DNA of 64,000 bases, taken from the NCBI GenBank assembly GCA_013820875.1, contig JACDHS010000008.1:277-64276 (forward strand). The letters run 5' to 3'. This stretch comes from Verrucomicrobiota bacterium. GTDB taxonomy: Bacteria > Verrucomicrobiota > Verrucomicrobiia > Limisphaerales > JACDHS01. Position numbers and translations under genes: made by a program. Position 1 is the first letter of the stretch. Every line of letters begins with the position of its first letter. Under the pieces are notes generated by a model that worked only from the letters and a program-made list of their open reading frames with translations, did not search any database and was not told the origin of the DNA. This document shows positions 2,953-64,000 of this stretch, in pieces.

Positions 2953-3265
2953 ATGGTCTTGGTTTTTTCTTCGCCATTCTCCACCTGTAGAACAGGTCTG
3001 CGATCGGGGAAAGTTAAACGCTACCCGATTGCGCTTTAGTGGGATTGAGTAATCTGGAGCGAGAGCAGACCTCTCTGCTATCGGGTTTTACAGCTTTGCG
3101 GCTGTTCTAAAAATGAAAGCGAAACACTTCTTATTATAATCGCGAGACATCATTGTAATGCGCCCGTTGTTCTTTGTTGTATATCGTAAGCACGAAGGAC
3201 AGATTCATGCGTTGGACTACGATGAAAACTAAATTTCCATTTCCAGTGGCGGCTATCTCGACACC

Positions 3266-3793
3266 ATGAAACTGAAATCTGCAACCGTGTGGTGGCTGGT
3301 GGCTCGAGGATTGTTGGCGCTGCATGCGCTTTTTGCTTTTATCGCGTGGTTCAATCTTCCTGAGCGCATCCCGACCCACTTTGGCATGGGAGGCGAGGCT
3401 GATGCCTGGAGCGGTCGTTCATTATGGACATGGTTTATGTTTGTCGCGATTTCACTCGGGTTTCATCTGTTGTTTTCTTTGCTCATCCTGCCTGGCGCTC
3501 TCCGTTTTTGGAACATCCCGGAAAAGGAACGATTTCTCCGGCTCACTCCTGAGCAGCAGAGGCCTGTTGTGGAACTGAAGCGTTCTTTCGCTGGCGCTGC
3601 GACGGTCTGCCTCACGGTGGTGATGTTGGCGTTGCAGATCGGGATTTATTTGACGGCGCAAGGTCATACCAAAGGGCTGCCCTGGTACATTCAGATTGCG
3701 CTGTTCGGCCCGGCGATTGGTTTAGTCATCGGAGTATTTTTTTGGATGAACGCCATGGAGCGTGTCATTGTAAAGGCATCTAGCTCGGAATAG
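3266..3793 (+). CDS. DUF1648 (SdpI-like) membrane protein
   Basis: LPERIPTHFGMGGEADAW motif with four hydrophobic segments. Confidence 0.8.
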   Translation: MKLKSATVWWLVARGLLALHALFAFIAWFNLPERIPTHFGMGGEADAWSGRSLWTWFMFVAISLGFHLLFSLLILPGALRFWNIPEKERFLRLTPEQQRPVVELKRSFAGAATVCLTVVMLALQIGIYLTAQGHTKGLPWYIQIALFGPAIGLVIGVFFWMNAMERVIVKASSSE

Positions 3794-3817
3794 TTCTGAA
3801 CACTGAATACTTTTTCC

Positions 3818-5299
3818 ATGTTCCCCGTAATCCTCAGCATCGACCTGGGCACAACCGGGAATCGCGCGATTATTTTCGATCGTGAAACGAACGTCGTGGC
3901 GGCGAGTTACCGTGAGTTCAAACAAATCTTCCCTCAGCCAGGCTGGGTGGAACACGACGCCGCAGAGATTTGGGCCAGCACACGCCGGGTCATTGCCGAA
4001 GCTGTGCAGCAGGTCGATCCAAAACGTATTGTCGCGATTGGTTTAACCAACCAGCGCGAAACCGTTGTCGCATGGAACCCAAAAACCGGCGAGCCAATCC
4101 ACAACGCAATCGTCTGGCAGGACCGGCGAACGTCCGCCCGTTGCGCAGAACTGAAGCGCGCGGGCATTGAGAAGGAAATCCGCGACCGAACCGGTCTGCT
4201 CGCCGATCCCTATTTCTCCGCCACCAAGATTGAATGGCTTCTCCAGAATGTTCCCGGTGCGAAAGACGCCATCTTCGGCACGATTGATTCCTGGATTCTT
4301 TGGAACCTCAGCGGGGGCAAAGTGCATGCCACTGACGTGAGCAATGCTTCGCGCACGATGCTGTTCAACTTGGAAACCTGCGATTGGGATGATCGGTTGC
4401 TCGATTTGTTTGGGGTTTCTCGATCGAGTTTGCCGGAGGTTCACGCCAGTTCCGGGGAGATCGCCGCGTTGGATCCGGAGTTGTTCGGGTTTTCCGCGCC
4501 TATCTGTGGTGTCGTCGGCGACCAGCAAGGATCCATGTTTGCGCAGGGATGTTATGAGCCGGGGATCGTCAAGAACACCTATGGCACTGGATTGTTCATG
4601 ATGATGAATACCGGCGCAGCGCGACCGATTGAGGAAGGGCTGCTCACGACTGTCGCATGGAAAATCGGGGGCGCCGTCGAATACGCCATCGAAGGGAGCG
4701 TGTTCACCGGCGGCGCCGCCATTCAATGGTTGCGCGATCAGTTGGGGATTGTGAAATCCGCGTCTGAAACGGAAGCGCTCGCTGCCAGTCTTGCGAGCAA
4801 TGAAGACGTCTATTTTGTCCCGGCATTGACCGGCCTGGGAGCGCCTCACTGGGATCCGGAAGCGCGCGGCACAATCATAGGGATTACTCGAGCGACCCGC
4901 CGCGCGCATCTCGCTCGCGCAGTGCTGGAAGCCATCGCCTATCAAACGCGCGATTTGACCGACCTGATGTGTCGAGCCACCGGCGCGCGTCTCCGCAAGT
5001 TGCAGGTGGACGGTGGCGCGTGTGCCAATAATTTCCTGATGCAGTTCCAATCGGATGTGCTCGATGCCCCGGTGGAGCGTCCGAAGATTATTGAAACGAC
5101 TGCCCTGGGAGCCGCGGGGCTGGCTGGTTTGGCGGCCGGGCTCTGGCCAAACCGAGAAGAGTTCATGAGACATCGGCGGGTGGAACGAACGTTCGAGCCG
5201 CACATGGATTCAGTAGAGCGCGACCGACTTTTTGCGAGATGGCAGAATGCCGTGCAACGCTCCCGCCATTGGGCCAGCGATCCAGCGCCAGGGATGTAG
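3818..5299 (+). CDS. glpK: Glycerol kinase
   Basis: IDLGTTGNRAI, GLTNQRETVVAW, IVWQDRRT, TDVSNASRTML, GDQQ, KNTYGTG, DGGACANNFLMQFQSD motifs. Confidence 0.96.
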   Translation: MFPVILSIDLGTTGNRAIIFDRETNVVAASYREFKQIFPQPGWVEHDAAEIWASTRRVIAEAVQQVDPKRIVAIGLTNQRETVVAWNPKTGEPIHNAIVWQDRRTSARCAELKRAGIEKEIRDRTGLLADPYFSATKIEWLLQNVPGAKDAIFGTIDSWILWNLSGGKVHATDVSNASRTMLFNLETCDWDDRLLDLFGVSRSSLPEVHASSGEIAALDPELFGFSAPICGVVGDQQGSMFAQGCYEPGIVKNTYGTGLFMMMNTGAARPIEEGLLTTVAWKIGGAVEYAIEGSVFTGGAAIQWLRDQLGIVKSASETEALAASLASNEDVYFVPALTGLGAPHWDPEARGTIIGITRATRRAHLARAVLEAIAYQTRDLTDLMCRATGARLRKLQVDGGACANNFLMQFQSDVLDAPVERPKIIETTALGAAGLAGLAAGLWPNREEFMRHRRVERTFEPHMDSVERDRLFARWQNAVQRSRHWASDPAPGM

Positions 5300-5706
5300 C
5301 CATGACCCTTTGGTCAGGACAACACTTGGAAGAAATCTCTACTTCAACCTGAGTGTAATCGTGGTTGCTGCACCGATGTTCTGTAAACCTTCCAACTTCT
5401 AACCTCAATGCACTGAATTAAACCACCCACTGTATGAGTAACAAGACTAACGAAAAGATGGAATGCACCGAAATGAACTTTATTGGCAATCGCCTGGCCA
5501 GTTGCCTTGACCTGGTTGGCCCGGATAAGAAAACCATTCGCGATAAATATCTCGTTGGCGATCCGCGCGATTGTCCGTTCGGATCTTCCGATGAAATGAA
5601 GCGGCGCGGTTTCGTTGGTATCTACGAAAAACAAACCGCCCATAGGATCTCCGGACCGAAGCTCAGTTTCCTCTTGAAAAAAGCCACCGCTGAATGGTGA
5701 GCGGCA

Positions 5707-5770
5707 GGGGGACAGTGTTCAGTATTCAGTTTTTTGACGTCTGAATACTGAACACTGAATACTGTCCCCC
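5707..5770. repeat. Intergenic imperfect inverted repeat (REP-like, CTGAATACTGAACACTG motif)
   Basis: GGGGACAGTGTTCAGTATTCAG...CTGAATACTGAACACTGAATACTGTCCCC; the same CTGAACACTGAATACT occurs at 3796-3811. Confidence 0.75.
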
Positions 5771-5831
5771 CTTGTTTCCCTGACGGTGCTTTCATAGTCG
5801 CGCCGTTACGGTTTCGGCGCGAGCTTTCAGC

Positions 5832-6665
5832 ATGCGAGCGATTTGGAAAGGTTCCATCAGTTTCGGGCTCGTTAATATCCCGGTAGGCCTCTACTCCGCC
5901 ACACGGCCCAGCAGCCAAATCAAATTGCGCATGCTGCGTAAAGGCGATCTCAGCCCGATCAAATACAAACGAGTGGCTGAAACCGACGACAAGGAAGTCG
6001 CCTGGGAAGAAATCATCAAAGGTTACGAATACGACAAAGACCAATTCATCGAAATCACCGAGGAAGATTTCCAGCGGGTGAATGTGGACGCCACCCAGAC
6101 TGTGGATATCAAAGAGTTTGTCGAACTGGATGAGATCGACCCGATGTTTTTCGATCAACCTTACTTTCTCGCGCCGGAAAAGGGGGGCGACAAAGCTTAC
6201 ACGTTACTCCGCGAGGCCCTCGCCAAAAGCGGGAGGGTTGGCATTGCCAAAGTCGTCATCAAAACCCGCGAACATCTCGCTGCGGTCAAACCCCTGGGCA
6301 AAGCGCTCGTCCTCGAATTGATGCACTTCGCCGAAGAACTTGCCGATCCGCAGGAGTTAAAACTGCCCGATGGCGAAGTCGGCAAAAAAGAACTCGTAAT
6401 GGCTGAGTCGCTCATTGAGCAGATGAGCGACAAATGGGATGCGCAAAAATATAAGGACGAATACCGCGATCAACTCGTGAAGTTGATTGAAGAAAAAATC
6501 AGCGCCGGTGGCGTAGTGACCGCCCCCCAGGCGAAAGCCCGCAAACCGACCAATGTTGTTGACCTGGTTTCAGTCCTGCAAGAGAGCTTGAATCAGACCA
6601 CCAAAAGCAAAGAAAAGAAGCCAGCCAAAGCACCCGGCAAAAAAACGAAGCGCAAAGCGGCGTGA
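5832..6665 (+). CDS. ku: Non-homologous end-joining protein Ku
   Basis: MRAIWKGSISFGLVNIPVGLYSA N-terminus, IDPMFFDQPYFLAP, VVDLVSVLQESL and a basic C-terminal tail. Confidence 0.96.
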   Translation: MRAIWKGSISFGLVNIPVGLYSATRPSSQIKLRMLRKGDLSPIKYKRVAETDDKEVAWEEIIKGYEYDKDQFIEITEEDFQRVNVDATQTVDIKEFVELDEIDPMFFDQPYFLAPEKGGDKAYTLLREALAKSGRVGIAKVVIKTREHLAAVKPLGKALVLELMHFAEELADPQELKLPDGEVGKKELVMAESLIEQMSDKWDAQKYKDEYRDQLVKLIEEKISAGGVVTAPQAKARKPTNVVDLVSVLQESLNQTTKSKEKKPAKAPGKKTKRKAA

Positions 6666-6688
6666 TTGCGGTTCCTCAGGGAGTGCAA

Positions 6689-6720
6689 ACCGCTAATCTG
6701 CGCTAACGAACGCTAATCCC
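6689..6720. repeat. ACCGCTAATC-type short-period REP-like motif
   Basis: ACCGCTAATCTGCGCTAACGAACGCTAATC; related copies at ~23696, ~23805-23835 (inverted) and ~51076. Confidence 0.65.
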
Positions 6721-6935
6721 GGGAGATTGCGGAAGATGTCGAACGATAGCTCCTCTAATCTCCGCAAAAACGTCTCAGATCAGGCCCTTGGCTCACACTT
6801 GGTGAGAAAGCGCTTGCTCCTGTCCAAACAGCCAAGGCAGCATTGTTTTAGCCAATGGATGCCCAGTTGACCGTCCAATGTTATCGTTCACTACGAATCG
6901 CCCGGGACACCAGGCTGCCGGATCATTTTATTTGA

Positions 6936-7949
6936 ATGAAAGACAATCTGCCCATCATTGATATGCACGTGCATATCGTCGGCAACGGAAGTGGCGGCAC
7001 AGGCTGCTGGGTGCGGGCGTCGAGGACACGTCGGCTACTGCAAACCTTCATGTGTCGGCACATCGGCTTGAAGGGGAGTGACCTTGAAGGAGATTTGGAC
7101 CGGCTTTACATCGAGGAACTTCTCAAGCAGGTGCTTGGTTCATCGTTGGATGCCATCGTGATTTTGGCGATGGAGCGAGTTTACGATTCGCAAGGAAAGT
7201 GCCTGGAGGATCACGGAACCAGCTATGTGCCAAACGATTATGTCCTCGCGCTGGCCCGGAAGCATCCGGAGTTTTTGCCTGCCGTCTCGATTCACCCGGC
7301 TCGCCCGGATGCCTTGGAGGAGCTGGAACGGTGTATTGCCGAAGGCGCAGTGATGATGAAGTGTCTGCCTTCGGTTCAGAACATTGATTGTCGCGATCGT
7401 CGTTACACGAAATTTTGGGAGCGGATGGCTGAAGCGGGCTTGCCGTTGCTGTCACACACCGGCACGGAGTTCACGCTGGAGGTGATTCGTCCCGAGTTCG
7501 CAGATCCCGCCATTCTTTCCTGGCCCCTTGAGTGTGGCGTCACGGTGATCGCGGCGCATTGTGCGACCAGGTGCGGATTGTTTGACCGGCAATTCTTTCA
7601 TGCCTTCTCCGAAATGACCCGCAGGTATCCTCGTCTATATGGAGACGTCAGCGCGTTCAATACCCCGATGCGCGGCAGCGTGGTTCCGGCTTGCCTGGAA
7701 GAACCGCTTTTGTCTCGCCTCGTTCATGGCAGCGATTACCCGGTTCCGGTTTTTGGCCATTGGGCCTGGATGCGCGATTTGATTGATTGGGAGGTTTTTC
7801 GAAAATGGGAACGCCAATCGAATGTTCTGGAACGTGATTATCAGATCAAACGAGCGATGGGTTTTCCGCCTGAAACATTTACCCGCATTAACGGTCTCCT
7901 GCCTGCGAAGGCTCCCCGACAGGCTGGCGCAGTTATTTCAAAACCCTGA
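6936..7949 (+). CDS. Amidohydrolase family (amidohydrolase_2-like) protein
   Basis: IIDMHVH, LLSHTG, VIAAHC and HGSDYP metal-binding motifs. Confidence 0.9.
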   Translation: MKDNLPIIDMHVHIVGNGSGGTGCWVRASRTRRLLQTFMCRHIGLKGSDLEGDLDRLYIEELLKQVLGSSLDAIVILAMERVYDSQGKCLEDHGTSYVPNDYVLALARKHPEFLPAVSIHPARPDALEELERCIAEGAVMMKCLPSVQNIDCRDRRYTKFWERMAEAGLPLLSHTGTEFTLEVIRPEFADPAILSWPLECGVTVIAAHCATRCGLFDRQFFHAFSEMTRRYPRLYGDVSAFNTPMRGSVVPACLEEPLLSRLVHGSDYPVPVFGHWAWMRDLIDWEVFRKWERQSNVLERDYQIKRAMGFPPETFTRINGLLPAKAPRQAGAVISKP

Positions 7950-7999
7950 CAGGCAAACGAGTTGCGTCTGGAGGTTTTGCCATCTTTCTCCAGGAATGG

Positions 8000-8242
8000 T
8001 CACTGACCTGCCGCTTCCGCCGCGCGGAATTCCACGACATGGATGTTCGGCGCTTTCGCTCGTCTGGCGGTCAGCTCAGTTTGTAATTGGGCGAGGTTCT
8101 TCACCTTCTTTTGCAACTCGATGAGGGCGGCCTTGGCTTGGATGTAATCGAAAGTTTCTGATGACGTGATCAATCGTTCCACCATCTGGCGGGTTTCGCT
8201 GATGTTGCGCAGGGCAATGTCAATGGGATCTGAGTTCTTCAA
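8000..8242 (-). CDS. Small coiled-coil hypothetical protein
   Basis: 80-aa ORF with amphipathic helical pattern filling an intergenic gap; TTG start. Confidence 0.55.
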   Translation of the reverse strand: MKNSDPIDIALRNISETRQMVERLITSSETFDYIQAKAALIELQKKVKNLAQLQTELTARRAKAPNIHVVEFRAAEAAGQ

Positions 8243-8331
8243 AAGCAGGAATTATATATCGGCTTTGTCGCAGTCGCTCAAATCAAAAAGAAAGGAGTGG
8301 AAGGGTTGAATTGGTTGGGAAGTGTCCGCAT

Positions 8332-8984
8332 GCGGAACATCAAATTGGAATCCGGAGCGTTTTCACCATGCAACAATGCAACAATTCACTCCAGATGTTT
8401 GAACTCCACGCGCAGGTCGTTTGCGTCGCAATGCAGGATGGCGACGACTCGCGGATCGTTGAAACGCTTTTTGCCGGCGGAACCGGGATTCAGGAAGAGG
8501 GTCTTGCCGATCATCTGGTTGAAGGGCTTGTGGGTATGGCCGAAAACAACGACGTCGGGTTTGGCAAGAAGGAGCCTGCGCTGGAACGTTTCTGAAGGAT
8601 TATGAATATCCACGATGTGATGGATCATGAATTTGCGCCCGGCGAGTTCGATGACTTCGGTTTCGCGTAACGGCAGGCCATCATCGGTGTTGCCATAGAC
8701 GGCAGTCACCGGCGCGATCTGCTCTAATTCAACGATGATATTGGATCGGCCGACATCGCCCGCATGAAGGATGTGATCCACACCGGCGAAAAGTTTTTCG
8801 ACCTGCGGATCAAACCAATTGTGCGTATCAGAAATGACGCCGATCTTCATGTAGCTGGACATGAATCCAAGTAAAGACGGAGAGAGACGTGAATTGCACG
8901 AATTTTCACGAATGGGGAAAGGAGGGTTACATGGATGAATGGTTGCATGGTGAAAACGCTCCGGATTCCAATTTGATGTTCCGC
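8332..8984. repeat. Perfect 43-bp inverted repeat pair (8332-8374 / 8942-8984) bracketing one gene
   Basis: GCGGAACATCAAATTGGAATCCGGAGCGTTTTCACCATGCAAC and its exact reverse complement; imperfect homology extends outward (GTTGGGAAG at ~8314 / ~9003). Confidence 0.9.
8386..8850 (-). CDS. Metallophosphoesterase (YfcE/MJ0936 family)
   Basis: MKIGVISDTHN, HAGDVG, GNTD, FGHTHKP, LNPGS calcineurin-like motifs; start reassigned to ATG 8850. Confidence 0.92.
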   Translation of the reverse strand: MKIGVISDTHNWFDPQVEKLFAGVDHILHAGDVGRSNIIVELEQIAPVTAVYGNTDDGLPLRETEVIELAGRKFMIHHIVDIHNPSETFQRRLLLAKPDVVVFGHTHKPFNQMIGKTLFLNPGSAGKKRFNDPRVVAILHCDANDLRVEFKHLE

Positions 8985-9175
8985 CTTGCAGGCGCTTCCC
9001 AACTGTGCCAGCCATTGAACTATGTAACTCCTCCTTTCTCCATTCGTGAGAATTCCTGTAATTCGTGTCTTAATTAACACCCCTTTTCCGATGCAAACTT
9101 TGCTTCCGCGAATTATGATGCATCTGCCTTGGTTTGAATATTGGCAGTGCGCGCAGTGTCCAAGGCTTGTCTTTT

Positions 9176-11470
9176 ATGTCGCCCCAATATTTTCGTGTCG
9201 CAAAGGTTTTCGCAGTCTTTGCCTTTGTTTTAGTTCACGGTTTCGTTGCTGCTGGCGCTTTTGGTGATCCTCGTGGTTTCCTGGTGAATCAACAGGTCTC
9301 CGAAACGGTTGTCTATCCGGGAGTCAAATACATCCGGGCCGATGGTTCTCACCTGGGGCTGCCCATGGTCACTCATGTTGTGACGGTTGATATGACCGAT
9401 CCCGGTGTGAAGCTCCAGATGCTACCGGGAGAACGCCTGGTCACAGCCTCTTCCGGCCAGTTCTTTCGCCGTTCACGGGTTTCCCATATGCAACAGGACA
9501 ACAACGCGCTCGTGGCGATCAACAGCGCCTTTTTCGACATCAGCGCCACCATGGCCCCGAGCGGGTTGCATGTGCGGGATGGCATGATGTTGCGTCAACC
9601 GGCGACCGGGAATCCGAGCTTTGCCGTGACTGAGGACGGCCTGGCTTTCATTAATAGTTTTGGGTGGAGCCGGAACGTCCGCTATGGGACAGGCACCGCT
9701 GCGTTGCAGGGTGTCAATAACAACATAATCGGCGACAACAACATAGCCTTGTATCAGTATCCATGGGACCGAAGTCCTGCGACCAATGCCGCATTCATCA
9801 ACGGGCGTGCGGTGACAGAAGTCGTGATCGGGAAAGTAGCTTTTACAAAATCGTCGGGCGGAACTCAGCGGCACCTGCTTCGAGGCAAGGTGTTGGAAGT
9901 TCGTAACAACAAAGGTTCTGTCGGGTTGAACGCCACCAATTATGTCCTGACTGCCACCGGGACATCTCGAAGTTTTTTGCAGCAGATGACCGTTGGTTCG
10001 ACGGTGGATGTGGATTGGCTACTGAGCAGTGTGCCGAGCGGCATCAATTGGAGTCGCATCAGCGAAGTGGTTTCCGGCAACAATCTTTTGATCGTCAATG
10101 GCGTTCTCCAGAACGGCAGCGGCAGTCATTGGGAATCGCGTCATCCGCGGAGTGTGGTCGGTATCAACGAGAGCCAAACCAAGGTGCTCTTTTTGTTGGT
10201 GGAAGGGCGTCAGAGTGGGCGGGCTGAAGGAATGAGCCTCGATAGTGTGCGCAATTATGTATCGCACATGGGTGTTTACAACTGTTTGGAACTCGATGGC
10301 GGTGGATCGTCTGCGATGGCTGGGCGTATCAATGGCAATAATGTGCTTCTCAGTACCCCGTCGGATGGTTCAGAGCGCTACGTCCCCTCGGGTCTCGGTG
10401 TGGTGGCTGTTCCCGAAATGGCCAATCCGTTTTTCCAAAACGTGCGTGTGAGCACTGGGCATGACATGGCGGCGATCAGTTGGGAAACGCCTGAGCCGGC
10501 AATCTCCTACTTGCTGTACGGCAAGGAGGGATATGACATCGAATCCATTCGGAACCAAGTGCCATCCAAAAGGCACACGATTTTTCTCTCCGGTCTGGAA
10601 TCTCATACGCTCTATTTCGCGCGAATGGCAGCGGAAACCGGTGCAGGAACACAAACGTCTCAGAGCCAGCAGTTCACCACCAGTTTCGAAGTGGTGGTGG
10701 ATGATGCCCAGGCCGCTTTCGACGGAACATGGAGCACTGGCGCATTTGAAGTTCCCTACGGCCCAAGCTACCGCTGGAGCAATGTGGACATCGCGAGCAG
10801 TCCAACGCGGACGGCGACGTTTCGCCCGAATCTTCCAGCCAGCGGTCACTACGATTTGTACGTGTGGTTTACGCCGGGAGGCAATCGCACGACCGAGGCG
10901 CGCTACGACATCAAAAACCAGGCAGGAACGCAGGTGTTGACGCAATCCCAGCGAACGGGTGGAAATAATTGGACACTGTTGGCCAGCAACATGGCCTTTG
11001 ATTCAGGAACAAACGGCTTCGCCAAAGTGCGCAATGACTCGACGGTGGGAACTGTCGTGATTGCGGACGCTTTCCGATGGGTGTTGAACAGCCCCGCGCC
11101 CATGCCACATGGAGAGGTGCCAACATGGTGGCGTGAACATTTCTTTGGGGTAAATGCTCCAGACGCTTCCACTGATGTGGATGAAGACGGTTATTCGATT
11201 TACGAGGAATACATTTGGGGAACGGTTCCCGATGACTCGACCTCTTCGCCGAGGACTATTTTCGAACAGACGCAAGGGGGTGGCTTCCAACTCACTTTCT
11301 CGCCAGTTCGCGCGGATCGAGTTTACCGAATCGAAGCCAGCACGGACCTGGATAGTTGGACAACATTCAATGTGCCTCTACAGGAAGTGAACGGACAGGG
11401 CATTGTTAATCTGCCGGTTGAATCCGGGTTGGGGCAACGGTATTATCGCCTCCGGGTCGCACTTCCGTAA
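9176..11470 (+). CDS. Secreted phosphodiester glycosidase (NAGPA-like) with Fn3-like and golvesin-like domains
   Basis: Signal peptide; VAINSAFFD, HPRSVVG, VEGRQ, LELDGGGSS motifs; later VVDDAQAAFDGTWSTG...YDLYVWFTPGGNR golvesin-like module. Confidence 0.85.
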   Translation: MSPQYFRVAKVFAVFAFVLVHGFVAAGAFGDPRGFLVNQQVSETVVYPGVKYIRADGSHLGLPMVTHVVTVDMTDPGVKLQMLPGERLVTASSGQFFRRSRVSHMQQDNNALVAINSAFFDISATMAPSGLHVRDGMMLRQPATGNPSFAVTEDGLAFINSFGWSRNVRYGTGTAALQGVNNNIIGDNNIALYQYPWDRSPATNAAFINGRAVTEVVIGKVAFTKSSGGTQRHLLRGKVLEVRNNKGSVGLNATNYVLTATGTSRSFLQQMTVGSTVDVDWLLSSVPSGINWSRISEVVSGNNLLIVNGVLQNGSGSHWESRHPRSVVGINESQTKVLFLLVEGRQSGRAEGMSLDSVRNYVSHMGVYNCLELDGGGSSAMAGRINGNNVLLSTPSDGSERYVPSGLGVVAVPEMANPFFQNVRVSTGHDMAAISWETPEPAISYLLYGKEGYDIESIRNQVPSKRHTIFLSGLESHTLYFARMAAETGAGTQTSQSQQFTTSFEVVVDDAQAAFDGTWSTGAFEVPYGPSYRWSNVDIASSPTRTATFRPNLPASGHYDLYVWFTPGGNRTTEARYDIKNQAGTQVLTQSQRTGGNNWTLLASNMAFDSGTNGFAKVRNDSTVGTVVIADAFRWVLNSPAPMPHGEVPTWWREHFFGVNAPDASTDVDEDGYSIYEEYIWGTVPDDSTSSPRTIFEQTQGGGFQLTFSPVRADRVYRIEASTDLDSWTTFNVPLQEVNGQGIVNLPVESGLGQRYYRLRVALP

Positions 11471-54848: not shown

Positions 54849-57800
54849 CTAATGACGGCTCTTTCGATTCCACAAAAACGAAAATATGCCAGCGACCGCT
54901 CCAACGGTGGCTCCGACTGCATTTGCCGCTACTTCAACAAAGGACCTCCTCGGTTTTGCTGGGTAAAACCGGTTTGTTTGGATGGGTGTTTTCCGGTCTT
55001 TGGCGCGTTCTGTCGCGTCTTCTCGCAAGCCCATCTGCAGCACTTGAGCGGTGTGCAATGCTTTGCGTCCGGCTAGTTGAGAGATCTGCTCACGGCAACT
55101 GAAACCATCGGCTATGACCAGAGTCGTTTCGTCGGCTTGGCGAACTCTCGGCAGCAGCACGCGTTCGCCACAGGCCACCGAAACATCATACTTTTCCTTC
55201 TCAAATCCGAACGATCCGGCCATGCCGCAACAACCAGAGTCGAGGATTTCAAAATCGAGCCCCATCTTCTCTAAAACTTTCTCCTCACAATGCATTTTCA
55301 TGATTGCCTTGTGATGGCAGTGGCCCTGGATGATGGCTTCGCGATGGAGCTTTGGAATCTGGAAGTGCGGCGCTTTCTTTTCTAAAAATTCACTGAGTGT
55401 GTAGGTGTTTTCTTGCAGCCGCCGCGCATCTTCCACCATGTGGAAAAGTCCACGTAATTCCTCGCGGAAAACAGAAACGCAACTCGGCTCCAAACCAACG
55501 ACGGGAATTCCTTCGGCAATTTCGTCGTGCAAGTTATCGAGCACCTGTTGCAACAGATGCTTCGCGGTTTTCAACATGCCGAAGTCGTAAAGTGGTCGGC
55601 CGCAACAAAGCATTTTCTCTGGAATGATGACATGGAAACCGGCCGCTTCCAAAACGGCAACGGCAGCTTTGCCAATATCAGGATGAAAAAAATTGGTGAA
55701 GGTATCGGGCCAAAGCAACACCTTCGCTTTTCCCTTGTTCCGTGGTGTGCGCTTTCCGAACCATGCGCGAAATGTTTCTTCCGCAAACTTCGGCATTTTG
55801 CGTTCGGGTGCAATTCCGCCGGAAACCTTCATCAACGAACTGAACGGTCTGGATTGCGTAAAGAAATTTGCAACTTTTGGCATTTGCGACGCCATTCGCG
55901 CCCACCAGTAAATCAGCCCCATTGCGTAAGCGCTGCTTGGGCGTAACCGGCCTTTGTAGTAATGTGCAAAAAATTCGGCTTTGTAGGTCGCCATGTCCAC
56001 ATGCACCGGGCAATCCGATTTGCACCCTTTGCAGGCAAGGCAAAGGTCGAGCGATTCTTTGACTTCGTCACTGCGCCAGCCACTTTTCAAAACATCGCCG
56101 TTCAGCATTTCCCAGAGCAATCGTGCGCGGCCACGAGTGGTGTGTTTTTCCTCTTTGGTCACCATGTAGCTGGGACACATTGTGCCATCTTCTTCGCGCC
56201 GACATTTTCCAACACCGACGCATCGTTCCATCGCATAAGGAAAACTGCCGTGATCATTCGGATATTTAAAATGCGTCTCGAGCTGTGGCGGATTGTAATC
56301 TGCACCGTATCGCAAATTTTCATCCACACGATACGGATGAACCACCTTGCGCGGGTTCATCTTGTTTTGCGGATCCCAGATCGCTTTGAACTCTTCAAAA
56401 GCTCGAACCATTTCGTGGCCGTACATAATAGGCATCATCTCGGCACGTGATTGCCCATCGCCATGCTCGCCGGAAAGTGACCCGCCATGGCTGACGACGA
56501 GGTGCGCGGCTTCATGCACAAAGTCGCGATACTTCTTGATGCCGTCTTTTGTCTTCAGGCCAAAATCGATTCGCGTGTGCACGCAACCACCCGCGAAATG
56601 GCCGTAGAGCGAGCAGGCGTATCCGTACTTGTTGAACAGTCCGCGCAGGTCACGAAGGTATTGACCAAGTTTCTCTGGCGGCACCGCTGAATCTTCCCAA
56701 CCTTCCCACGCGTCGTCATCAGGTCCGCGATGGGCCGTTGCCCCCAAACTCGACTCGCGAATTTCCCAAATTTTCTGCTGCTCTGATTGTTGTTTTAATA
56801 ATTTGATATTCGGAGAGTCGCCATTGCGCTTCAAAGCCTCGATCATTTCACGTGATTTCTCATCTGCTTCCCGGTGTGAGTCAGCGCCAATCTCAACCAG
56901 GAGCCATCCATTCCCTTCCGGCAGAATGGGAAGATCTTCGACGTGCAATCCGCGACTCCGCATGTTGTCGATCAACACATCATCGATTCCTTCAAGGCCC
57001 GTCGGCTTAAACTTCGAAATTTCAGCAACTGCATCGCCAGCCGTATAAATGTCGGGATAACCGAGTAACAACAAGTAAGTGACAGACGGTTTGTGCAACA
57101 GGTGAACGGTGGCTTGCAGAACGGTCGCGCAGGTTCCTTCCGTTCCAACAAGTGCCCGGGCCACATTGAAACCATTCTCGGGCAGCAACTGGTTCACTGC
57201 ATAGCCAGATACCTTTCGCGGCAACTTCGGAACGCGTTGACGGATCAAATCCGCGTACTTGTCGCGAAACGCTTTTAGATGCTTATAGATTTCAGCCGGC
57301 CGGCCACCGCGCCTGATAATTTCCGCAAATTGCAAATCGTTGGTCGGACCAACTGTCATCCGGCAGCCATCATAAGTAAGAATATCGAGTTCGACGACCT
57401 GGTCTGAAGTGCGCGCGCCATTCCCGTAAAATTGCCCCATTGCTGAATGCACACCGCAGGCGTTGTTGCCGATCATTCCCCCGATCGTGCACCACTGGTG
57501 GGTGGAGGGATCGGGGCCGAACCTTAACTGAAATGGTTTAGCCGCATCCTGGAGATGATCGAGGACCACCCCCGCCTGGACCCGGGCGAGCTTGCTCACA
57601 GGGTCGAGGTCAATGACTCGATTCATGTATTTAGAAAAATCGAGAATGACGGCGACGTTGCAGCATTGCCCGGCAAGGCTCGTTGCACCGCCGCGACAGG
57701 TAATCGGTGCGTCAAATTCGCGGCAAAGAGCCACTGTCTCGATTACATCTTCTTCGTCGTGCGGAATGATAATGCCAATGGGAACCTGCCGATAATTCGA

Positions 57801-57926
57801 ACTGTCGGTGGCGTAGAGCGCGCGACTGCCCTCATCGAAACGAACCTCACCTTTTATTTTACGACGAAGACGCGTTGCAAGAGCGTCAGCCTCGTTGCGT
57901 AGCGGTTTTTCAAAGCGCTGTTTCAC
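54849..57926 (-). CDS. FAD-linked oxidase with C-terminal Fe-S/CCG domains (YdiJ/GlcD-like)
   Basis: RGGATSLAGQ, GPDPST, GGMIGNNACG, SLSGEHGDG, CLACKGCKSDC, CCGRP, CCGMAGSFG. Confidence 0.92.
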   Translation of the reverse strand: MKQRFEKPLRNEADALATRLRRKIKGEVRFDEGSRALYATDSSNYRQVPIGIIIPHDEEDVIETVALCREFDAPITCRGGATSLAGQCCNVAVILDFSKYMNRVIDLDPVSKLARVQAGVVLDHLQDAAKPFQLRFGPDPSTHQWCTIGGMIGNNACGVHSAMGQFYGNGARTSDQVVELDILTYDGCRMTVGPTNDLQFAEIIRRGGRPAEIYKHLKAFRDKYADLIRQRVPKLPRKVSGYAVNQLLPENGFNVARALVGTEGTCATVLQATVHLLHKPSVTYLLLLGYPDIYTAGDAVAEISKFKPTGLEGIDDVLIDNMRSRGLHVEDLPILPEGNGWLLVEIGADSHREADEKSREMIEALKRNGDSPNIKLLKQQSEQQKIWEIRESSLGATAHRGPDDDAWEGWEDSAVPPEKLGQYLRDLRGLFNKYGYACSLYGHFAGGCVHTRIDFGLKTKDGIKKYRDFVHEAAHLVVSHGGSLSGEHGDGQSRAEMMPIMYGHEMVRAFEEFKAIWDPQNKMNPRKVVHPYRVDENLRYGADYNPPQLETHFKYPNDHGSFPYAMERCVGVGKCRREEDGTMCPSYMVTKEEKHTTRGRARLLWEMLNGDVLKSGWRSDEVKESLDLCLACKGCKSDCPVHVDMATYKAEFFAHYYKGRLRPSSAYAMGLIYWWARMASQMPKVANFFTQSRPFSSLMKVSGGIAPERKMPKFAEETFRAWFGKRTPRNKGKAKVLLWPDTFTNFFHPDIGKAAVAVLEAAGFHVIIPEKMLCCGRPLYDFGMLKTAKHLLQQVLDNLHDEIAEGIPVVGLEPSCVSVFREELRGLFHMVEDARRLQENTYTLSEFLEKKAPHFQIPKLHREAIIQGHCHHKAIMKMHCEEKVLEKMGLDFEILDSGCCGMAGSFGFEKEKYDVSVACGERVLLPRVRQADETTLVIADGFSCREQISQLAGRKALHTAQVLQMGLREDATERAKDRKTPIQTNRFYPAKPRRSFVEVAANAVGATVGAVAGIFSFLWNRKSRH

Positions 57927-58233: not shown

Positions 58234-59988
58234 TCAGATCAGTTCCCGCACTTTGTCTTCAAGGATTGTCGTCGCAATTTTCATACGCCTCGGTTGCCCT
58301 CGAGCGAGTGACTTGGCGAACTTGGCCGCTTGCGAGGCTTCGATTGTTGCGGGCATCGGCGGTTCAAATGGATCAACGACAGCCTCGACGATGACCGGTC
58401 CCGGAGTTGCTAAAGCTTCGTCCAAAATATCGCCGCATTCGGCAGGATCTTCGATGGTGAACCCGGTGCCACCGCAGGCCTCGGCGATTCCGACGAAATC
58501 GATCGGCTCCAACTCGCAGCCATATTCCGGGTTTCCGAGAAACACCATTTGCTCCCATTTGATCTGCCCGAGTGTGTTGTTTTTAATGATCACTACCTTG
58601 ATGGGAAGCTTGTATTTAACCGCGGTGACGAATTCGGACATTAGCATGGAGAATCCACCGTCGCCCACGAAGGCGATGCACTGGCGTTCGGGATGCGCGA
58701 TTTGAGCGGCAATCGTGTAGGGCAATCCGTTGGCCATTGTAGCGAGCGTGCCCGACAACGAATACATCTGCCCAGCCTTCACTTTCATTTGTCGCGCAAA
58801 CCAGGTGGCGATCGTGCCGCTATCACATGAGACAATGGCATTTTCCTGCAATCGCTTTCCGAGTTCCCATGCCACCACCTGAGGTTTCATCGGCATGTCC
58901 TGTCGAGTGCCGCGTTCTTCCATCAATTCCCACCAACTCTCCATTCCCTTCTGCGCTTCTTCCAGAAAATCGCTCTCCTTGTTCTTGCGCAGCAGCGGCA
59001 GCAATTTTTGCAACGTGCGTTTGGTGTCGCCCGCCAAACCAACTTCGATCGGGTAACGCAAACCAATTCGGGCAGGATCAATATCAATCTGCACGCCGCG
59101 CGCTTTCCCGGGCTTTGGTAGAAATTCGATATAGGGAAACGAGGTCCCAACCATCAAGAGCGTGTCACAATTTTCGATGGCCTCTTGCGACGGTTTAGTG
59201 CCGAGCAATCCAATCGTGCCGGTGGTGTACGGGCTGTCATCCGGAACACAGGCTTTGCCGAGTAGTGCCTTGATGATGGGTGCCTGCAGTTTTTCCGCGA
59301 GAGCAATCAACTCATCGCTAGCGTGGAGTGCGCCGCGTCCGGCGAGTATCGCAATTTGTTTACCGGAATTCAAAACCTCCGCCGCCCGAATCAAATCCTG
59401 ATCTGTCGGAAGACCAGCTCGTGACGCAAAGACATTTGTGTCCATTCCTTTGACGTTCCGCTTCGAGCGAAAACCAGACTTTACGGACTCCGACTGGGTA
59501 TCCACCGGGAAATTAATGTGAGCCACGCCGCGACGAGCGATGGCGGTGCGGCATGCCAGGTGAATGACATTCTCAACGTGCTCTGGTCCCATGATGCGCG
59601 TGTTGTAAACGGCGACATCCATAAAGACGCGATCCAGTGGGATGTCCTGTTGCGCATGGGTGTCGATCAGGTCGTGGTAATGATGCCCGGTGATCGCGAG
59701 CACCGGTTGCCCGTCGAATTTGGCATCATACAAACCATTCAGAAGATGAATGCCTCCGGGCCCGGAAGTGGCGAGGCAAACGCCAAGCTTCCCGGTGTAC
59801 TTCGCGTAACCGCATGCCATGAACGCTGCCGATTCCTCATGGCGCACCTGCACAAATTTTATTCTTTTCTTACATTTGCGCAGGGATTCCATAATCCCGT
59901 TGATGCCGTCGCCGGGGAGTCCAAAGATAACTTCAACGCCCCAATCACAAAGTGTTTCGACCAGAATATCTGCTGCTGTAATTGCCAT
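58234..59988 (-). CDS. ThDP/FAD-dependent pyruvate oxidase/dehydrogenase (PoxB-like)
   Basis: FGLPGDGIN, VRHEESAAF, SGPGGIHLLNGLYDA, GDGGF...NN ThDP motif; start reassigned to ATG 59988. Confidence 0.9.
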   Translation of the reverse strand: MAITAADILVETLCDWGVEVIFGLPGDGINGIMESLRKCKKRIKFVQVRHEESAAFMACGYAKYTGKLGVCLATSGPGGIHLLNGLYDAKFDGQPVLAITGHHYHDLIDTHAQQDIPLDRVFMDVAVYNTRIMGPEHVENVIHLACRTAIARRGVAHINFPVDTQSESVKSGFRSKRNVKGMDTNVFASRAGLPTDQDLIRAAEVLNSGKQIAILAGRGALHASDELIALAEKLQAPIIKALLGKACVPDDSPYTTGTIGLLGTKPSQEAIENCDTLLMVGTSFPYIEFLPKPGKARGVQIDIDPARIGLRYPIEVGLAGDTKRTLQKLLPLLRKNKESDFLEEAQKGMESWWELMEERGTRQDMPMKPQVVAWELGKRLQENAIVSCDSGTIATWFARQMKVKAGQMYSLSGTLATMANGLPYTIAAQIAHPERQCIAFVGDGGFSMLMSEFVTAVKYKLPIKVVIIKNNTLGQIKWEQMVFLGNPEYGCELEPIDFVGIAEACGGTGFTIEDPAECGDILDEALATPGPVIVEAVVDPFEPPMPATIEASQAAKFAKSLARGQPRRMKIATTILEDKVRELI

Positions 59989-60310
59989 GATTGCTCCTTT
60001 TAAACGGAAAAGCTGGTGACCGATGTTCAGAGTTAACGTCGGCATTGTTTGGGGGCTGGGCAACGCGCTTATCCCCTGATTCTCGGTTGGGGGGGAACCT
60101 CTTTCTGCACTTAAATACCGATAGGCCCTCAAGAGGTTGCCACATGGCTTGAGGCATCCGGAGTCAGTAAAAACCGCAGTTCTGTAAAGTGGTGAAAATG
60201 GAACGAAGCAGGCGTAAAGCCGCACACCTGATTCGGGAACAAACCGAGTTATTCTTTCTCGTCGACAGCCTTAAGGTTGTTCCTGAGGCAACTTCACTTC
60301 ACGGAGAGAA

Positions 60311-60787
60311 ATGGAACGACGAACTTTTTTACAAATTGCGATCGCCACAGGAGGGTTGGTCACCGCTGCAATTGTTGCAATTCCCGTCATCGGCACTGCA
60401 TTGTCGCCGGTGCTGCGACGAGAATCCGGCGAGTTGTGGCAGCCAATTGGCGCATTGGAAAATTTCCCGATCGGCCAAATGACGAGGGCAAACGTCACTG
60501 TTCCACGCGATGACTGGTCGCAAACGCTTCGTGAAAAAGGGCTGTATGTCCTGCGCTCATCCAATGCCGAACTGATCGTCTTCTCGCGCAACTGCACCGA
60601 CCTGAGCTGCCCGATTGTGTGGGACGAAGGGAGTAACTGCTTTTTCTGTCCGTGCCACGGTGGAATTTTTTCACGTCAAGGCGACCCGATGAAGGGTCCA
60701 CCTAAGCGGGCGCTTTACCGTTACGCAGCGCGTGTGCGCAATGACACTGTGGAAATCGATTTAAGATCAGTTCCGCCGATGGCTTAA
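60311..60787 (+). CDS. Rieske iron-sulfur subunit (QcrA/PetA-like) with CTDLSC box I
   Basis: Tat-like MERRTFL plus TM helix; CTDLSCP and CPCHGG boxes; GPPKRAL. Confidence 0.9.
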   Translation: MERRTFLQIAIATGGLVTAAIVAIPVIGTALSPVLRRESGELWQPIGALENFPIGQMTRANVTVPRDDWSQTLREKGLYVLRSSNAELIVFSRNCTDLSCPIVWDEGSNCFFCPCHGGIFSRQGDPMKGPPKRALYRYAARVRNDTVEIDLRSVPPMA

Positions 60788-60796
60788 GGAAAAACT

Positions 60797-62209
60797 ATGG
60801 CGAAACGATGGCGCACATGGATTTCGGATCGGTTCGGGTTGCGCCGGGTGTATGAAGGGACACTGAATCGCCGCGTCGCCAAGAGCTCATGGTATTACGG
60901 CGATGGCGCCACGCTGACATTTCTCCTGGGGGTGTTGGTGGTGACGGGAATGTTCATGTCGCTCACCTACACGCCATCGCCTGATGGCGCCTATGAAAGT
61001 ATTCGATTTATCACCGAAAAGCAGGTGCTCGGATGGTTTGTGCGCGGACTGCACTATTGGGCGGCGGGAATGATGGTGGTGATGCTCTTCTTCCATTTGT
61101 TCCGCCAGATCCTCGTCGGAGGCTACAAGTTTCCTCGCGAAGGCACATGGCTGATTGGAGTCATTCTTTTTTTCGCAATTATCCTCATGTCGTTCACCGG
61201 GTACTTGCTGCGATGGGATGAACGATCGATTTATGCGCTGAAGGTGGCGCAGCATATGTTCTCTCGTTTGCCGTGGATTGGAGAGAGTGTTGTCGTTTTT
61301 ATCCAGGGAGGAACGGAACCCGGCGCAACAACGTTGACCCGGCTCTACGCCGTTCACGTAATTTTTGTGCCGGTGCTGTTGGGACTTTTTGTCATCTGGC
61401 ACATCTACCTTGTCATTATTCACGGGGTCACTTCACAAGAGGAACGGAATCAACCCATTTATACCGCTTCGCAGCAACGTCAACTTTATCGAGCCCAGGC
61501 GCGTTCCCGTGAGAAAGGCGAAAACTTCTTCCCGATGACTGTCTTCAAATCGGGGCTCATGGCCACGATTGTTTTTGCGATCGTTCTGACGCTCACGCTC
61601 ACTCTCGGCCCGCAGCGCCTCTATCCAGAGGCTGATCTCACCACGATTTCACGACCCATTGAGGAATGGTGGTTCTATTGGTACAGCGGTTTGATCGCGC
61701 TTTTGCCAAATACGATTGCGCCCTGGTTCGTTGTCATTTTTCCGATCGTGCTGTTCATCATTCTGATCTTGCTGCCGTTCATCGACCGCAGCCCCTGGCG
61801 CGGTTTTAAAAAACGGTTGTGGCCGCCGATTGTCGTCGGGATTTGTGTCATCGGAATTCTTTACCTCACCGATTTGCGCAGGCGCTCCCCCTGGACAGGG
61901 TGGCCGGACTCTGAACCTCCACCAGTTCCCGCAGGCGTGGTATTGTCACCGGAAGCGGAGCAGGGCAGGCAGTTGTTCGCGCAATACGGCTGTAACAGTT
62001 GCCATCCGATTTCGGGTCACGGCCGAAAAGTGGCCGTTGATTTCGGGCAAATTGAACGACGCCTTTCGCAGGATTACATTCGCGACTACATCCTGCAGCC
62101 GCCTGAAGGCATTGCCATGCCGGGTTATCGGGGTCGGATGTCGGCACAAGATCTTGAGCGAATCGTCGAGTTCGTTCTCGTGGCCCAAACCTTTCCGCGC
62201 AGCCAATGA
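60797..62209 (+). CDS. Cytochrome b fused to a C-terminal cytochrome c
   Basis: YTPSPDGAYES, LHYWAA, FHLFR, TGYLLRWD, YAVH, IWH heme-b ligands; CNSCH...AMP heme-c. Confidence 0.93.
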   Translation: MAKRWRTWISDRFGLRRVYEGTLNRRVAKSSWYYGDGATLTFLLGVLVVTGMFMSLTYTPSPDGAYESIRFITEKQVLGWFVRGLHYWAAGMMVVMLFFHLFRQILVGGYKFPREGTWLIGVILFFAIILMSFTGYLLRWDERSIYALKVAQHMFSRLPWIGESVVVFIQGGTEPGATTLTRLYAVHVIFVPVLLGLFVIWHIYLVIIHGVTSQEERNQPIYTASQQRQLYRAQARSREKGENFFPMTVFKSGLMATIVFAIVLTLTLTLGPQRLYPEADLTTISRPIEEWWFYWYSGLIALLPNTIAPWFVVIFPIVLFIILILLPFIDRSPWRGFKKRLWPPIVVGICVIGILYLTDLRRRSPWTGWPDSEPPPVPAGVVLSPEAEQGRQLFAQYGCNSCHPISGHGRKVAVDFGQIERRLSQDYIRDYILQPPEGIAMPGYRGRMSAQDLERIVEFVLVAQTFPRSQ

Positions 62210-63195
62210 AAGCTCCGCAAATTCGAACGGCCATTGCGCTCATGACAGCCACGCTGTTGTGCGGCTGCGGCGGAGAACATTTTCAATCCGTGCTTCACCC
62301 GGCCAGTCCTGAAGCAGGCGAGATTTCCCGGCTCTGGTGGTTCATGCTCGCAGTTTGCGGCACCGTTTTTGTCATTGTCATTGCGCTTTTGATTGTTGCG
62401 ATTGGAAGGCGCGGCAATCGCAAGCCGCAGGCGCCAGGGGGCGACGCCAAATTCGTGTTGATCGGAGGGATGCTGATTCCGGGAATCATTTTGTTCGTGC
62501 TGCTCATTTACTCCATCAGCGCAAAGGTCGTGCTCACGGGCGACGAACGAAACCTCACCATTCAAGTGATTGGTCACCAATGGTGGTGGGAAGTGCGCTA
62601 TCCCAATCAGGACATCGTCATTGCGAACGAAATCTACATCCCGGTCGGCGAACCGGTTCGTCTTCAATTGAAATCCGCCGATGTGATTCACAGTTTTTGG
62701 GTGCCAAACCTGCACGGCAAAATGGACATGCTGCCGGAACACATCAACACGTTTTGGATTCGCGCCGACAAGCCCGGCGTATATCGCGGCCAATGCGCGG
62801 AATTCTGCGGCGCACAACATGCATGGATGGCTTTTGAAGTCGTTGCGCTTTCGACAAATGATTTTCAACAGTGGGTTTCTGAACGCCGCAAACTAGCCGT
62901 CGAACAGGTGGCATCCGCGGAACGCAAATTCTCCCACGAAGTCTATATGCGCGTCGGTTGCGGCCAGTGCCATGCGATAAAAGGCACTTCTGCCGTCGCA
63001 CAGATCGGCCCCGACCTCACGCACTTCGGCAGTCGCCGAACCATTGGCGCGGGTTTGATGACCAACAATACGGAGACCCTGACACGCTGGATTCTCGCTC
63101 CGCAAAAGATGAAACCCGGCAATCTCATGCCGCACACGAAACTGACCGATGAAGAACTTCAGGAACTGGTCGCTTATTTGACTTCATTGAAATGA
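62206..63195 (+). CDS. ctaC: Cytochrome c oxidase subunit II with cytochrome c domain (caa3-type)
   Basis: Lipoprotein signal (LLCGC), GHQWWW, DVIHSFWVP, CAEFCGAQHAWM CuA site, CGQCH. Confidence 0.94.
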   Translation: MKAPQIRTAIALMTATLLCGCGGEHFQSVLHPASPEAGEISRLWWFMLAVCGTVFVIVIALLIVAIGRRGNRKPQAPGGDAKFVLIGGMLIPGIILFVLLIYSISAKVVLTGDERNLTIQVIGHQWWWEVRYPNQDIVIANEIYIPVGEPVRLQLKSADVIHSFWVPNLHGKMDMLPEHINTFWIRADKPGVYRGQCAEFCGAQHAWMAFEVVALSTNDFQQWVSERRKLAVEQVASAERKFSHEVYMRVGCGQCHAIKGTSAVAQIGPDLTHFGSRRTIGAGLMTNNTETLTRWILAPQKMKPGNLMPHTKLTDEELQELVAYLTSLK

Positions 63196-64000
63196 CAACG
63201 CGCCCGTTAACCGAATTTGAGAAAACCTGGAGTCCGGGTGTCAGCCGGGCTGCGCGCTGGTTTGCGGTGGTTAACAACCAACCGCTCGGAAAACGTTACA
63301 TGCTGACTGCCTTCGTCTTTTTTACAATCGGCGGTGTTCTTGCCCTGCTGATGCGCGTTCAACTGACTGTTCCCGAAAACAACCTGATCGACCCGCACGT
63401 TTTCAATCAGCTCTTCACGATGCACGGCTCGACGATGATGTTTCTCTTTGCGGTGCCATTCCTGGAAGGACTCACGCTCTACATTCTGCCGATGATGATT
63501 GGTTCGCGCGACGTTGCCTTTCCGCGTCTCACCGCGTTCAGTTACTGGACCTACCTGTTTGGAGGGATCCTTTTCTATTCGAGCTTCCTGTTCGGAACCG
63601 TTCCGGATGCCGGATGGTTTGCCTATACGCCGCTTTCCGGGCCGCGCTATTCCGGCCTGGGCGTGGACTTCTGGCTGCTTGGTTTGAGCCTGGTAGAAAT
63701 CGCTGGAATCACTGCCGGCGTGGAAATCGTCGTCACGATTTTGAAGCTCCGGGCACCCGGCATGACGATCAGCCGCATGCCGCTCTTCGTCTGGGCGTTG
63801 CTTGTGACCGGCGTGATGATTTTGTTCGCCTTCACGACACTGCTCGTAGCCACGGTATTACTTGAGATGGATCGCTCAATCGGCACGCGATTCTTTGATT
63901 CTGCCGCCGGGGGAAACAGTCTGCTCTGGCAACATCTCTTCTGGTTCTTCGGCCACCCGGAAGTTTACATCATGTTCCTTCCGGCAACCGGCATCGTCTC
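63192..64000 (+). CDS. ctaD: Cytochrome c oxidase subunit I (partial, runs off the window)
   Basis: Own translation from ATG 63192: FTMHGSTMMFLF, GWFAYTPLS, WQHLFWFFGHPEVY; absent from the track because it has no stop in the window. Confidence 0.95.
   Translation, partial: MTTRPLTEFEKTWSPGVSRAARWFAVVNNQPLGKRYMLTAFVFFTIGGVLALLMRVQLTVPENNLIDPHVFNQLFTMHGSTMMFLFAVPFLEGLTLYILPMMIGSRDVAFPRLTAFSYWTYLFGGILFYSSFLFGTVPDAGWFAYTPLSGPRYSGLGVDFWLLGLSLVEIAGITAGVEIVVTILKLRAPGMTISRMPLFVWALLVTGVMILFAFTTLLVATVLLEMDRSIGTRFFDSAAGGNSLLWQHLFWFFGHPEVYIMFLPATGIV

Follow-up and report, generated by a model that had tools for sequence, protein, structure and literature searches.

A clade of Rieske-type proteins with aspartate in place of the first histidine ligand, encoded beside caa3-type oxidase genes

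Rieske centres and described variants

Rieske centres are defined by a Cys2His2 ligand set, the two histidines of which have a key part in every model of quinol oxidation by complex III and the b6f complex. The protein described here, called Asp-type in the following, is encoded in a stretch of 64,000 nucleotides (the window) and has an aspartate at the position of the first of these histidines. Carboxylate ligation of a [2Fe-2S] cluster is known from Streptomyces RsrR, which uses a Cys2-His-Glu set with two cysteines on one iron and the histidine and the carboxylate on the other. This is the kind of ligand set proposed below for the Asp-type Rieske protein. RsrR is, however, an Rrf2 regulator of unrelated fold with inter-subunit ligands; its carboxylate is Glu and not Asp, and it is no respiratory Qo-site centre.

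Within a Rieske scaffold, non-histidine ligands were engineered into the Rieske-type ferredoxin ARF of Sulfolobus. With the exchange H64C in box II, a 3Cys-1His [2Fe-2S] cluster of low potential was formed, and H44C in box I abolished cluster assembly (Kounosu et al., 2004, reviewed in PMC2946596). These variants likewise place a non-histidine ligand in the scaffold, but they are artificial, whereas an aspartate is naturally fixed at box I in the proteins reported here.

Compared with canonical bc1/b6f Rieske proteins (Chlorobaculum tepidum, 8hn2; Nostoc PetC, 2zt9; Kuenenia kuste4569, 9rk4), the Asp-type subunit has the same fold with an N-terminal helix, box II CPCHG, the disulfide cysteines, the Pro loop, a Tat-like signal and an adjacent cytochrome b gene. 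The difference lies in box I, in which all solved structures and all 124 aligned outgroup relatives have histidine. At the level of the whole chain, the actinobacterial bcc-aa3 system (7q21, 8ovd) offers the closest parallel in design: a menaquinol-oxidising complex III passes electrons through a built-in cytochrome c to an aa3-type oxidase without soluble cytochrome c. It differs in its canonical Cys2His2 Rieske protein, in a separate di-haem QcrC and in belonging to another lineage. Its Rieske chains were among the Foldseek matches of the Asp-type model. The gene order suggests that the Asp-type complex, too, may form a physical bc-caa3 supercomplex.

The partner cytochrome b has a fused class I cytochrome c in common with clades in a published cytochrome b survey. 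The fused clades of that survey mix Planctomycetes, Verrucomicrobia, Acidobacteria and others, which is attributed to horizontal transfer. At position 1 of the Qo motif, 84% of its sequences have Pro, and 84% have Tyr at position 4, compared to EEWW here. A term search of its text gave no EEWW, no PEWW and no Rieske partner lacking a histidine. Term searches in Kao and Hunte (2014), Dibrova (2017), Baymann (2012) and the 2025 paper on the Kuenenia Rieske proteins found no Asp variant. Searches of the full-text literature, to which subscription journals do not belong, gave no account of a Rieske subunit with Asp for His or of EEWW at a Qo site. Database names of the proteins are generic ('menaquinol/ubiquinol-cytochrome c reductase iron-sulfur subunits'). 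The Asp-type Rieske protein is probably a natural variant, so far undescribed, of a redox centre known from textbooks.

The Asp-type Rieske gene and its operon

The relevant features of the window are as follows.

60311 to 60787, plus strand: Asp-type Rieske iron-sulfur subunit, an open reading frame of 158 aa with an N-terminal membrane helix and a Rieske head domain
60317 to 60331, plus strand: Tat-like twin-arginine sequence motif R3-R4-T-F-L
60593 to 60610, plus strand: box I, C95-T-D97-L-S-C100 (TGC ACC GAC CTG AGC TGC)
60647 to 60664, plus strand: box II, C113-P-C115-H116-G-G (TGT CCG TGC CAC GGT GGA)
60695 to 60703, plus strand: Pro loop, G129-P-P131, invariant in the Asp clade
60797 to 62209, plus strand: cytochrome b, 470 aa, with a fused C-terminal mono-haem cytochrome c (PF00033, 133.6 bits; PF13631; PF13442)
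61661 to 61672, plus strand: E289-E-W-W292, the Qo motif, as against the usual P[D/E]WY
62206 to 63195, plus strand: CoxB, subunit II of the cytochrome c oxidase, fused C-terminally to a cytochrome c with CGQCH (TIGR02866, PF00116, PF00034)
63192 to 64000, plus strand: start of the CoxA gene, which leaves the window; on contig C126 it encodes an 837-aa fusion of subunits I and III

The Rieske reading frame is preceded by an RBS-like GGAGAG. Its product matched the Pfam Rieske family PF00355 with 33.1 bits (cut-off 20.3). The NCBIfam models for bc1/b6f iron-sulfur subunits matched it below their cut-offs, the best being TIGR01416 with 49 bits against a required 97; no curated NCBIfam model reached its cut-off or separated the Asp-type proteins. 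The sequence-only reading of this DNA had reported a Rieske protein with CTDLSC in box I and an intact box II, CPCHGG, and both observations were exact. D97 is encoded by GAC (60599-60601), and HMMER alignments to the solved Rieske proteins 8hn2, 5cxm and 2zt9 placed it on the box I histidine without a gap (nCTdlsC...CPCHG on CTHLGC...CPCHG). With Asp at the histidine column, box I departs from the C-x-H-x-G-C pattern and the Cys2His2 set is incomplete. Box II retains the second cysteine ligand, the disulfide cysteine and the second histidine ligand, and the disulfide pair C100 and C115 is present. The positions at which Ser and Tyr tune the potential are occupied by G118 and F120.

An AF2 model of the subunit (mean pLDDT 89.6) consists of a helix (residues 3-35) followed by a beta domain, and its best Foldseek matches were Rieske chains of the bc/b6f type, e.g. 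8hn2, 9rk4 and 2zt9, with a probability of 1.00. A membrane anchor, a Tat-type signal and the adjacency to cytochrome b, as expected of a Rieske iron-sulfur protein (ISP), were all found. Ahead of the membrane helix, the twin basic pair of the related proteins described below is RR in 74, KR in 23 and RK in 7 of 119 members. About 88% of the members keep such a Tat-like motif, as would suit a domain that is exported already folded and with its cofactor in place. Judged by its sequence, the Asp-type protein is a member of the ISP family by descent that is without the defining Cys2His2 set.

The cytochrome b gene starts 10 bases downstream of the Rieske gene. Both haem ligand pairs for bL and bH lie inside the PF00033 match (H86/H100 with 13 residues between them, H187/H202 with 14), and the fused domain contains the class I haem motif CNSCH (residues 399-403, 61991-62005; PF13442, 35.2 bits). 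Of the usual P-[E/D]-W-Y at the Qo site, the protein keeps the Glu/Asp of position 2 and the Trp of position 3. A comparison was made with the nearest His-type relative, P0133 (locus L091, CTHLGC in box I), the Rieske protein of which has ~44% identity and equal box spacing, and the cytochrome b of which is likewise fused to a cytochrome c. BLASTP aligned RPIEEWWFYW with QPKPDWYFQW of this cytochrome b without a gap. EEWW therefore occupies the usual P[D/E]WY site, with changes from Pro to Glu at position 1 and from Tyr to Trp at position 4, which confirms the earlier remark that EEWW stands where PEWY is usual. The operon of P0133 forms one unit with coxB, coxA, coxC and ctaA/B and in this resembles the Asp-type linkage to cox genes; it differs in the His ligand, in the PDWY motif and in having the cox genes upstream, not downstream.

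CoxB exceeded the cut-off of TIGR02866 clearly (179.4 against 147.7 bits) and contains the CuA motif CAEFCGAQHAWM. The CuA site, the fused cytochrome c and the CoxA gene downstream identify the operon partner as an A-type (caa3) oxidase. After CoxA, contig C126 encodes a 130-aa membrane protein and then a 322-aa multi-pass membrane protein; from its position, the latter is possibly a CtaG-type assembly factor.

Two genes stand head-to-head with the operon. The one at 54849-57926 (minus strand) encodes a protein of 1025 aa in which an FAD-linked oxidase (FAD_binding_4 and FAD-oxidase_C) is fused to a part with two 4Fe-4S motifs and a CCG domain; it is similar to GlcD/GlcF or D-lactate dehydrogenase. 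At 58234-60225 (minus strand) lies the gene of a TPP enzyme that is PoxB- or acetolactate-synthase-like; its listed ORF start is probably about 80 codons early. Both enzymes might reduce quinone for the quinol-oxidising module.

Elsewhere in this genome, contig C117 (479-2964) carries a canonical Rieske gene (CPHAGC...CPCHNS) and a cytochrome b of ~598 aa with PEWY, and the genome therefore holds both a His-type and an Asp-type complex. The C-terminal extension of the C117 cytochrome b contains a CxxC. A third, odd cytochrome b of 709 aa, with a cysteine-rich, 4Fe-4S ferredoxin-like C-terminal part, is encoded on contig C205 (~2300-10000). Its neighbours are a cupredoxin CoxB-like protein (173 aa), a divergent protein resembling subunit I of haem-copper oxidases (582 aa), a SCO1/SenC-like gene, a cytochrome c and a NirK-like multicopper protein. 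This cluster is unusual and possibly NOR- or oxidase-related.

Conservation and distribution of the aspartate

A protein search over 5.8 billion sequences returned 305 matches. All of the best 120 of these, at 50-70% identity, have Asp: their box I is CTDL[S/G]C, and box II, 12 residues further on, is CPCHG[G/A]. A scan of GTDB with one genome per species gave 185 related stretches, and the 80 loci that were kept carry Asp without exception (CTDLGC in 45, CTDLSC in 33, CTDVGC and CTDLAC in one each), encoded by GAC in 44 and by GAT in 36. The use of both codons points to selection on the amino acid. In an exhaustive HMMER search over 1.84 billion cluster representatives, the boundary was sharp: full-length relatives above ~45% identity have Asp, with the single exception of P0122 (see below), and the more distant ones all have CxHxxC at an unchanged box spacing of 12 residues.

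In a joint alignment, Asp was present in 130/130 clade sequences and His in 124/124 outgroup relatives; neither Glu, Asn nor Ser occurred at the ligand column of the 130. The Asp clade is monophyletic in the Rieske tree, with a support of 100/99 and a long stem. Within it, C95, C100, C113, C115, H116, G129, P130 and P131 are conserved to 100% and L98 to 98%. From these alignments, the residues of the Rieske site are, as far as conservation tells, at least as constrained in the Asp clade as in the canonical relatives.

Some positions around the site, R93, D105, G107, S108 and I119, are near-invariant specifically in this clade. R93 (60587-60592 together with the preceding S92) is found in 98% of the members and is replaced by V, I, S or P outside. 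D105 to S108 (60623-60634) form a near-invariant stretch that flanks the cluster-binding boxes. As a guess, R93 might offset the charge of Asp97 by pairing with it.

The comparison bears directly on a caution of the sequence-only reading, namely that GAC is one base from CAC and that a mutation or error could be involved. A sequencing or assembly error, or a recent mutation from CAC to GAC private to this genome, has the single-base difference on its side, but Asp in more than 200 independent homologs, written as GAC or GAT, makes it next to impossible, and we regard it as effectively excluded. Histidine in all close homologs, which would have spoken for such an event, is the opposite of what the best 120 homologs show. 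The suggested search for CTDLxC homologs in the same type of operon was productive as well: besides Asp in each of the 80 loci, the order Rieske, cytochrome b-c, CoxB and CoxA follows directly downstream in ~60. Several further loci have cox genes elsewhere, and the Desulfobulbaceae-type loci have them upstream. By these sequence comparisons, the substitution is no artefact; well over a hundred species, belonging to at least eight phyla, have it as a fixed character.

The only known clade member with histidine is P0122 (CTHLSC, codon CAC; locus L090, positions 451-927), which comes from one 3.4-kb Logan contig of SRR34348078. It also carries D105T and P131T, both at near-invariant positions of the cluster-binding part. 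Its gene order is that of the Asp clade and its cytochrome b has PAEEWW. P0122 falls into a basal polytomy in the Rieske tree and in the tree of the longer cytochrome b, and the trees favour neither a basal position nor a reversion.

Across the clade, PxEEWW was found in ~70 of the 77 loci that cover the Qo site. Positions 2 (E) and 3 (W) are invariant, position 4 is Tyr in three loci, and the first Glu is replaced by G or A in three loci that have Asp. EEWW and Asp arise on the same stem branch, the sister clade having His and PDWY. The proposal of a Qo site that co-evolved with the Rieske ligand stands insofar as the two changes share this branch; a strict interdependence is contradicted by P0122, with His and EEWW, and by the three Asp loci with G or A.

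According to the record titles, the carriers belong to Verrucomicrobiota, Planctomycetota (many), Desulfobacterota, Bdellovibrionota and Bacteroidota/Rhodothermota (Rhodothermales), and further include Sericytochromatia CBMW_12, a Chloracidobacterium MAG and an Armatimonadetes MAG. These phyla are interleaved in the cytochrome b tree. Among 301 sampled genomes of the phylum of the window, the Asp type was present only in this genome and one other. The patchy occurrence in phyla, the interleaved tree and the low count (2/301) indicate a rare, patchy and evidently mobile module.

Eight other carrier genomes were searched as a whole. In six of them, the cytochrome b beside the Asp-type Rieske gene is the only PF00033 match; among these are the isolate Oligoflexus tunisiensis Shr3 (Bdellovibrionota) and Ca. 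Laterigemmans baculatus. In three of the genomes with a sole cytochrome b, other Rieske-domain matches lie far from it. The canonical complex on contig C117 could suggest that the Asp-type genes of this genome are a redundant, decaying and non-functional paralog. Such decay is highly improbable and effectively excluded by the intact reading frames across the whole operon, by the strong purifying selection in the clade and by the six of eight genomes in which the Asp type is the sole complex. In the window's genome itself, the canonical Rieske protein and cytochrome b mean that a function of the Asp type is not forced.

Proposed centre chemistry and function

We consider it likeliest, with a probability of roughly 60%, that the Asp-type genes of this monophyletic and horizontally spread clade encode a functional menaquinol:cytochrome c reductase whose [2Fe-2S] centre is of the Cys2-His-Asp kind. 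Conservation of the four cysteines, the box II histidine and the Tat-like signal makes such a reductase the most plausible reading, and the conserved Asp, alongside the retained ligands, disulfide cysteines and export signal, supports a Cys2-His-Asp centre. The presence of the cluster, its ligation by Asp and the electrochemical consequences discussed in this section are inferred from sequence.

In the proposed arrangement, the Rieske subunit would be anchored in the membrane, probably exported by Tat, and part of a Rieske/cytochrome b complex that acts as a menaquinol:cytochrome c oxidoreductase. The genes of this complex are hard-wired to those of a caa3-type oxidase in the order Rieske, cytochrome b-c, CoxB-c and CoxA/C. 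The [2Fe-2S] cluster would still be bound, with Cys95 and Cys113 on one iron, and with Asp97 (O-delta) and His116 (N-delta) holding the redox-active iron; Cys100 and Cys115 would form the usual disulfide. His116, which we take from the bc1 structures to be the counterpart of bovine His161, the quinol-contacting histidine, would retain substrate binding and proton-coupled electron transfer. Owing to this correspondence, the proton-coupled first electron transfer could proceed. The docking surface on cytochrome b would have been altered on the same branch, with EEWW for PDWY.

The geometry is compatible with ligation by aspartate. Histidines of Rieske centres bind through N-delta (PMC2946596), and the O-delta of Asp is the same number of bonds away from the backbone, a match that Glu would not provide. 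The cluster might also be kept while Asp97 serves not as a ligand but as a second-sphere base or hydrogen-bond partner, with the fourth position taken by water or hydroxide, or by C100 or C115 in a 3Cys-1His site. In the engineered scaffold, Cys for the box I histidine fails and a 3Cys-1His cluster at box II is viable (PMC2946596), and the two extra cysteines are invariant, all of which would suit a non-ligand Asp. We still regard it as unlikely: the Asp sits exactly on the ligand column in 130/130 sequences with no Glu, Asn or Ser, its O-delta equals the reach of the His N-delta, and C100 and C115 are equally invariant in the His-type relatives, in which they form the disulfide.

A more drastic alternative is the loss of the cluster, or its replacement by a single metal ion, which would reduce the protein to a structural subunit and send the Qo electrons along another route, e.g. 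through the fused cytochrome c. One defining ligand is absent and the Qo motif is altered too. Moreover, engineered removal of the box I histidine blocks cluster insertion; with assembly abolished by the change of His44 to Cys, the box I position is not generally permissive (PMC2946596). Against cluster loss stands the constraint on four cysteines, H116, the Pro loop and the Tat-like signal across at least eight phyla at an overall identity of ~50%, which is hard to explain for an empty site. In addition, the complex holds the only cytochrome b of several aerobes. Loss of the cluster therefore appears improbable to us, and the Cys2-His-Asp centre remains the preferred reading.

For such a centre, the anionic Asp carboxylate would be expected to lower the potential and to remove one of the two redox-linked imidazole ionisations. 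Hydrogen bonds from Ser and Tyr raise the potential of Rieske centres, and mutation of these two residues in yeast lowers it by 130 mV and 65 mV (PMC12954380). With G118 and F120 providing no such donors, the scaffold would already be of the low-potential, menaquinol type. An anionic ligand on top of the missing Ser/Tyr donors might leave little driving force for menaquinol oxidation. One idea is that one ionisable His ligand fewer might help at an alkaline periplasmic pH.

In the strictly aerobic, oxidase-positive O. tunisiensis, MK-7 is the sole quinone, and aa3 and cbb3 cytochrome c oxidases are encoded (PMC4179278, PMC5154148). The window's genome contains two genes of the MqnA/MqnD family, i.e. 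of the futalosine menaquinone pathway; a search of this genome for MenA found none. In view of the sole cytochrome b in aerobes, of MK-7 and of MqnA/D, menaquinol is most probably the substrate of the complex, and the neighbouring oxidase most probably receives its electrons.

To the more specific proposal that a natural Cys2/His-Asp [2Fe-2S] site of the Rieske fold drives quinol oxidation in a menaquinol-dependent bc-caa3 module, we give even odds. If it is true, the box II histidine alone would suffice for proton-coupled electron transfer and bifurcation at the Qo site, and the carboxylate ligand would lead to single-proton coupling with a potential that is lower and less pH-dependent. For a mobile respiratory module, the Asp site may be adaptive.

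The clade represents a natural, widespread and apparently functional lineage in which one Rieske histidine is missing and the Qo motif is correspondingly altered. It is a ready-made experiment on which Rieske histidine does what, on the part that ligand charge plays in setting the potential of menaquinol-based chains, and on the range over which the machinery of the Q-cycle can vary. The cultured strict aerobe O. tunisiensis Shr3 has the Asp type beside its only cytochrome b, and no other candidate for a complex III of this kind is present in it, which opens the question to direct tests in culture.

Regarding habitats, the isolate names CSSed, DLM2/PLM2, Lejia and ACE appear to refer to samples from soda or saline lakes. 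Names of this kind are attached to the loci L029, L030, L048, L062, L063, L012, L014, L015, L017, L042, L054 and L068; further carriers of the Asp type are from soil and freshwater.
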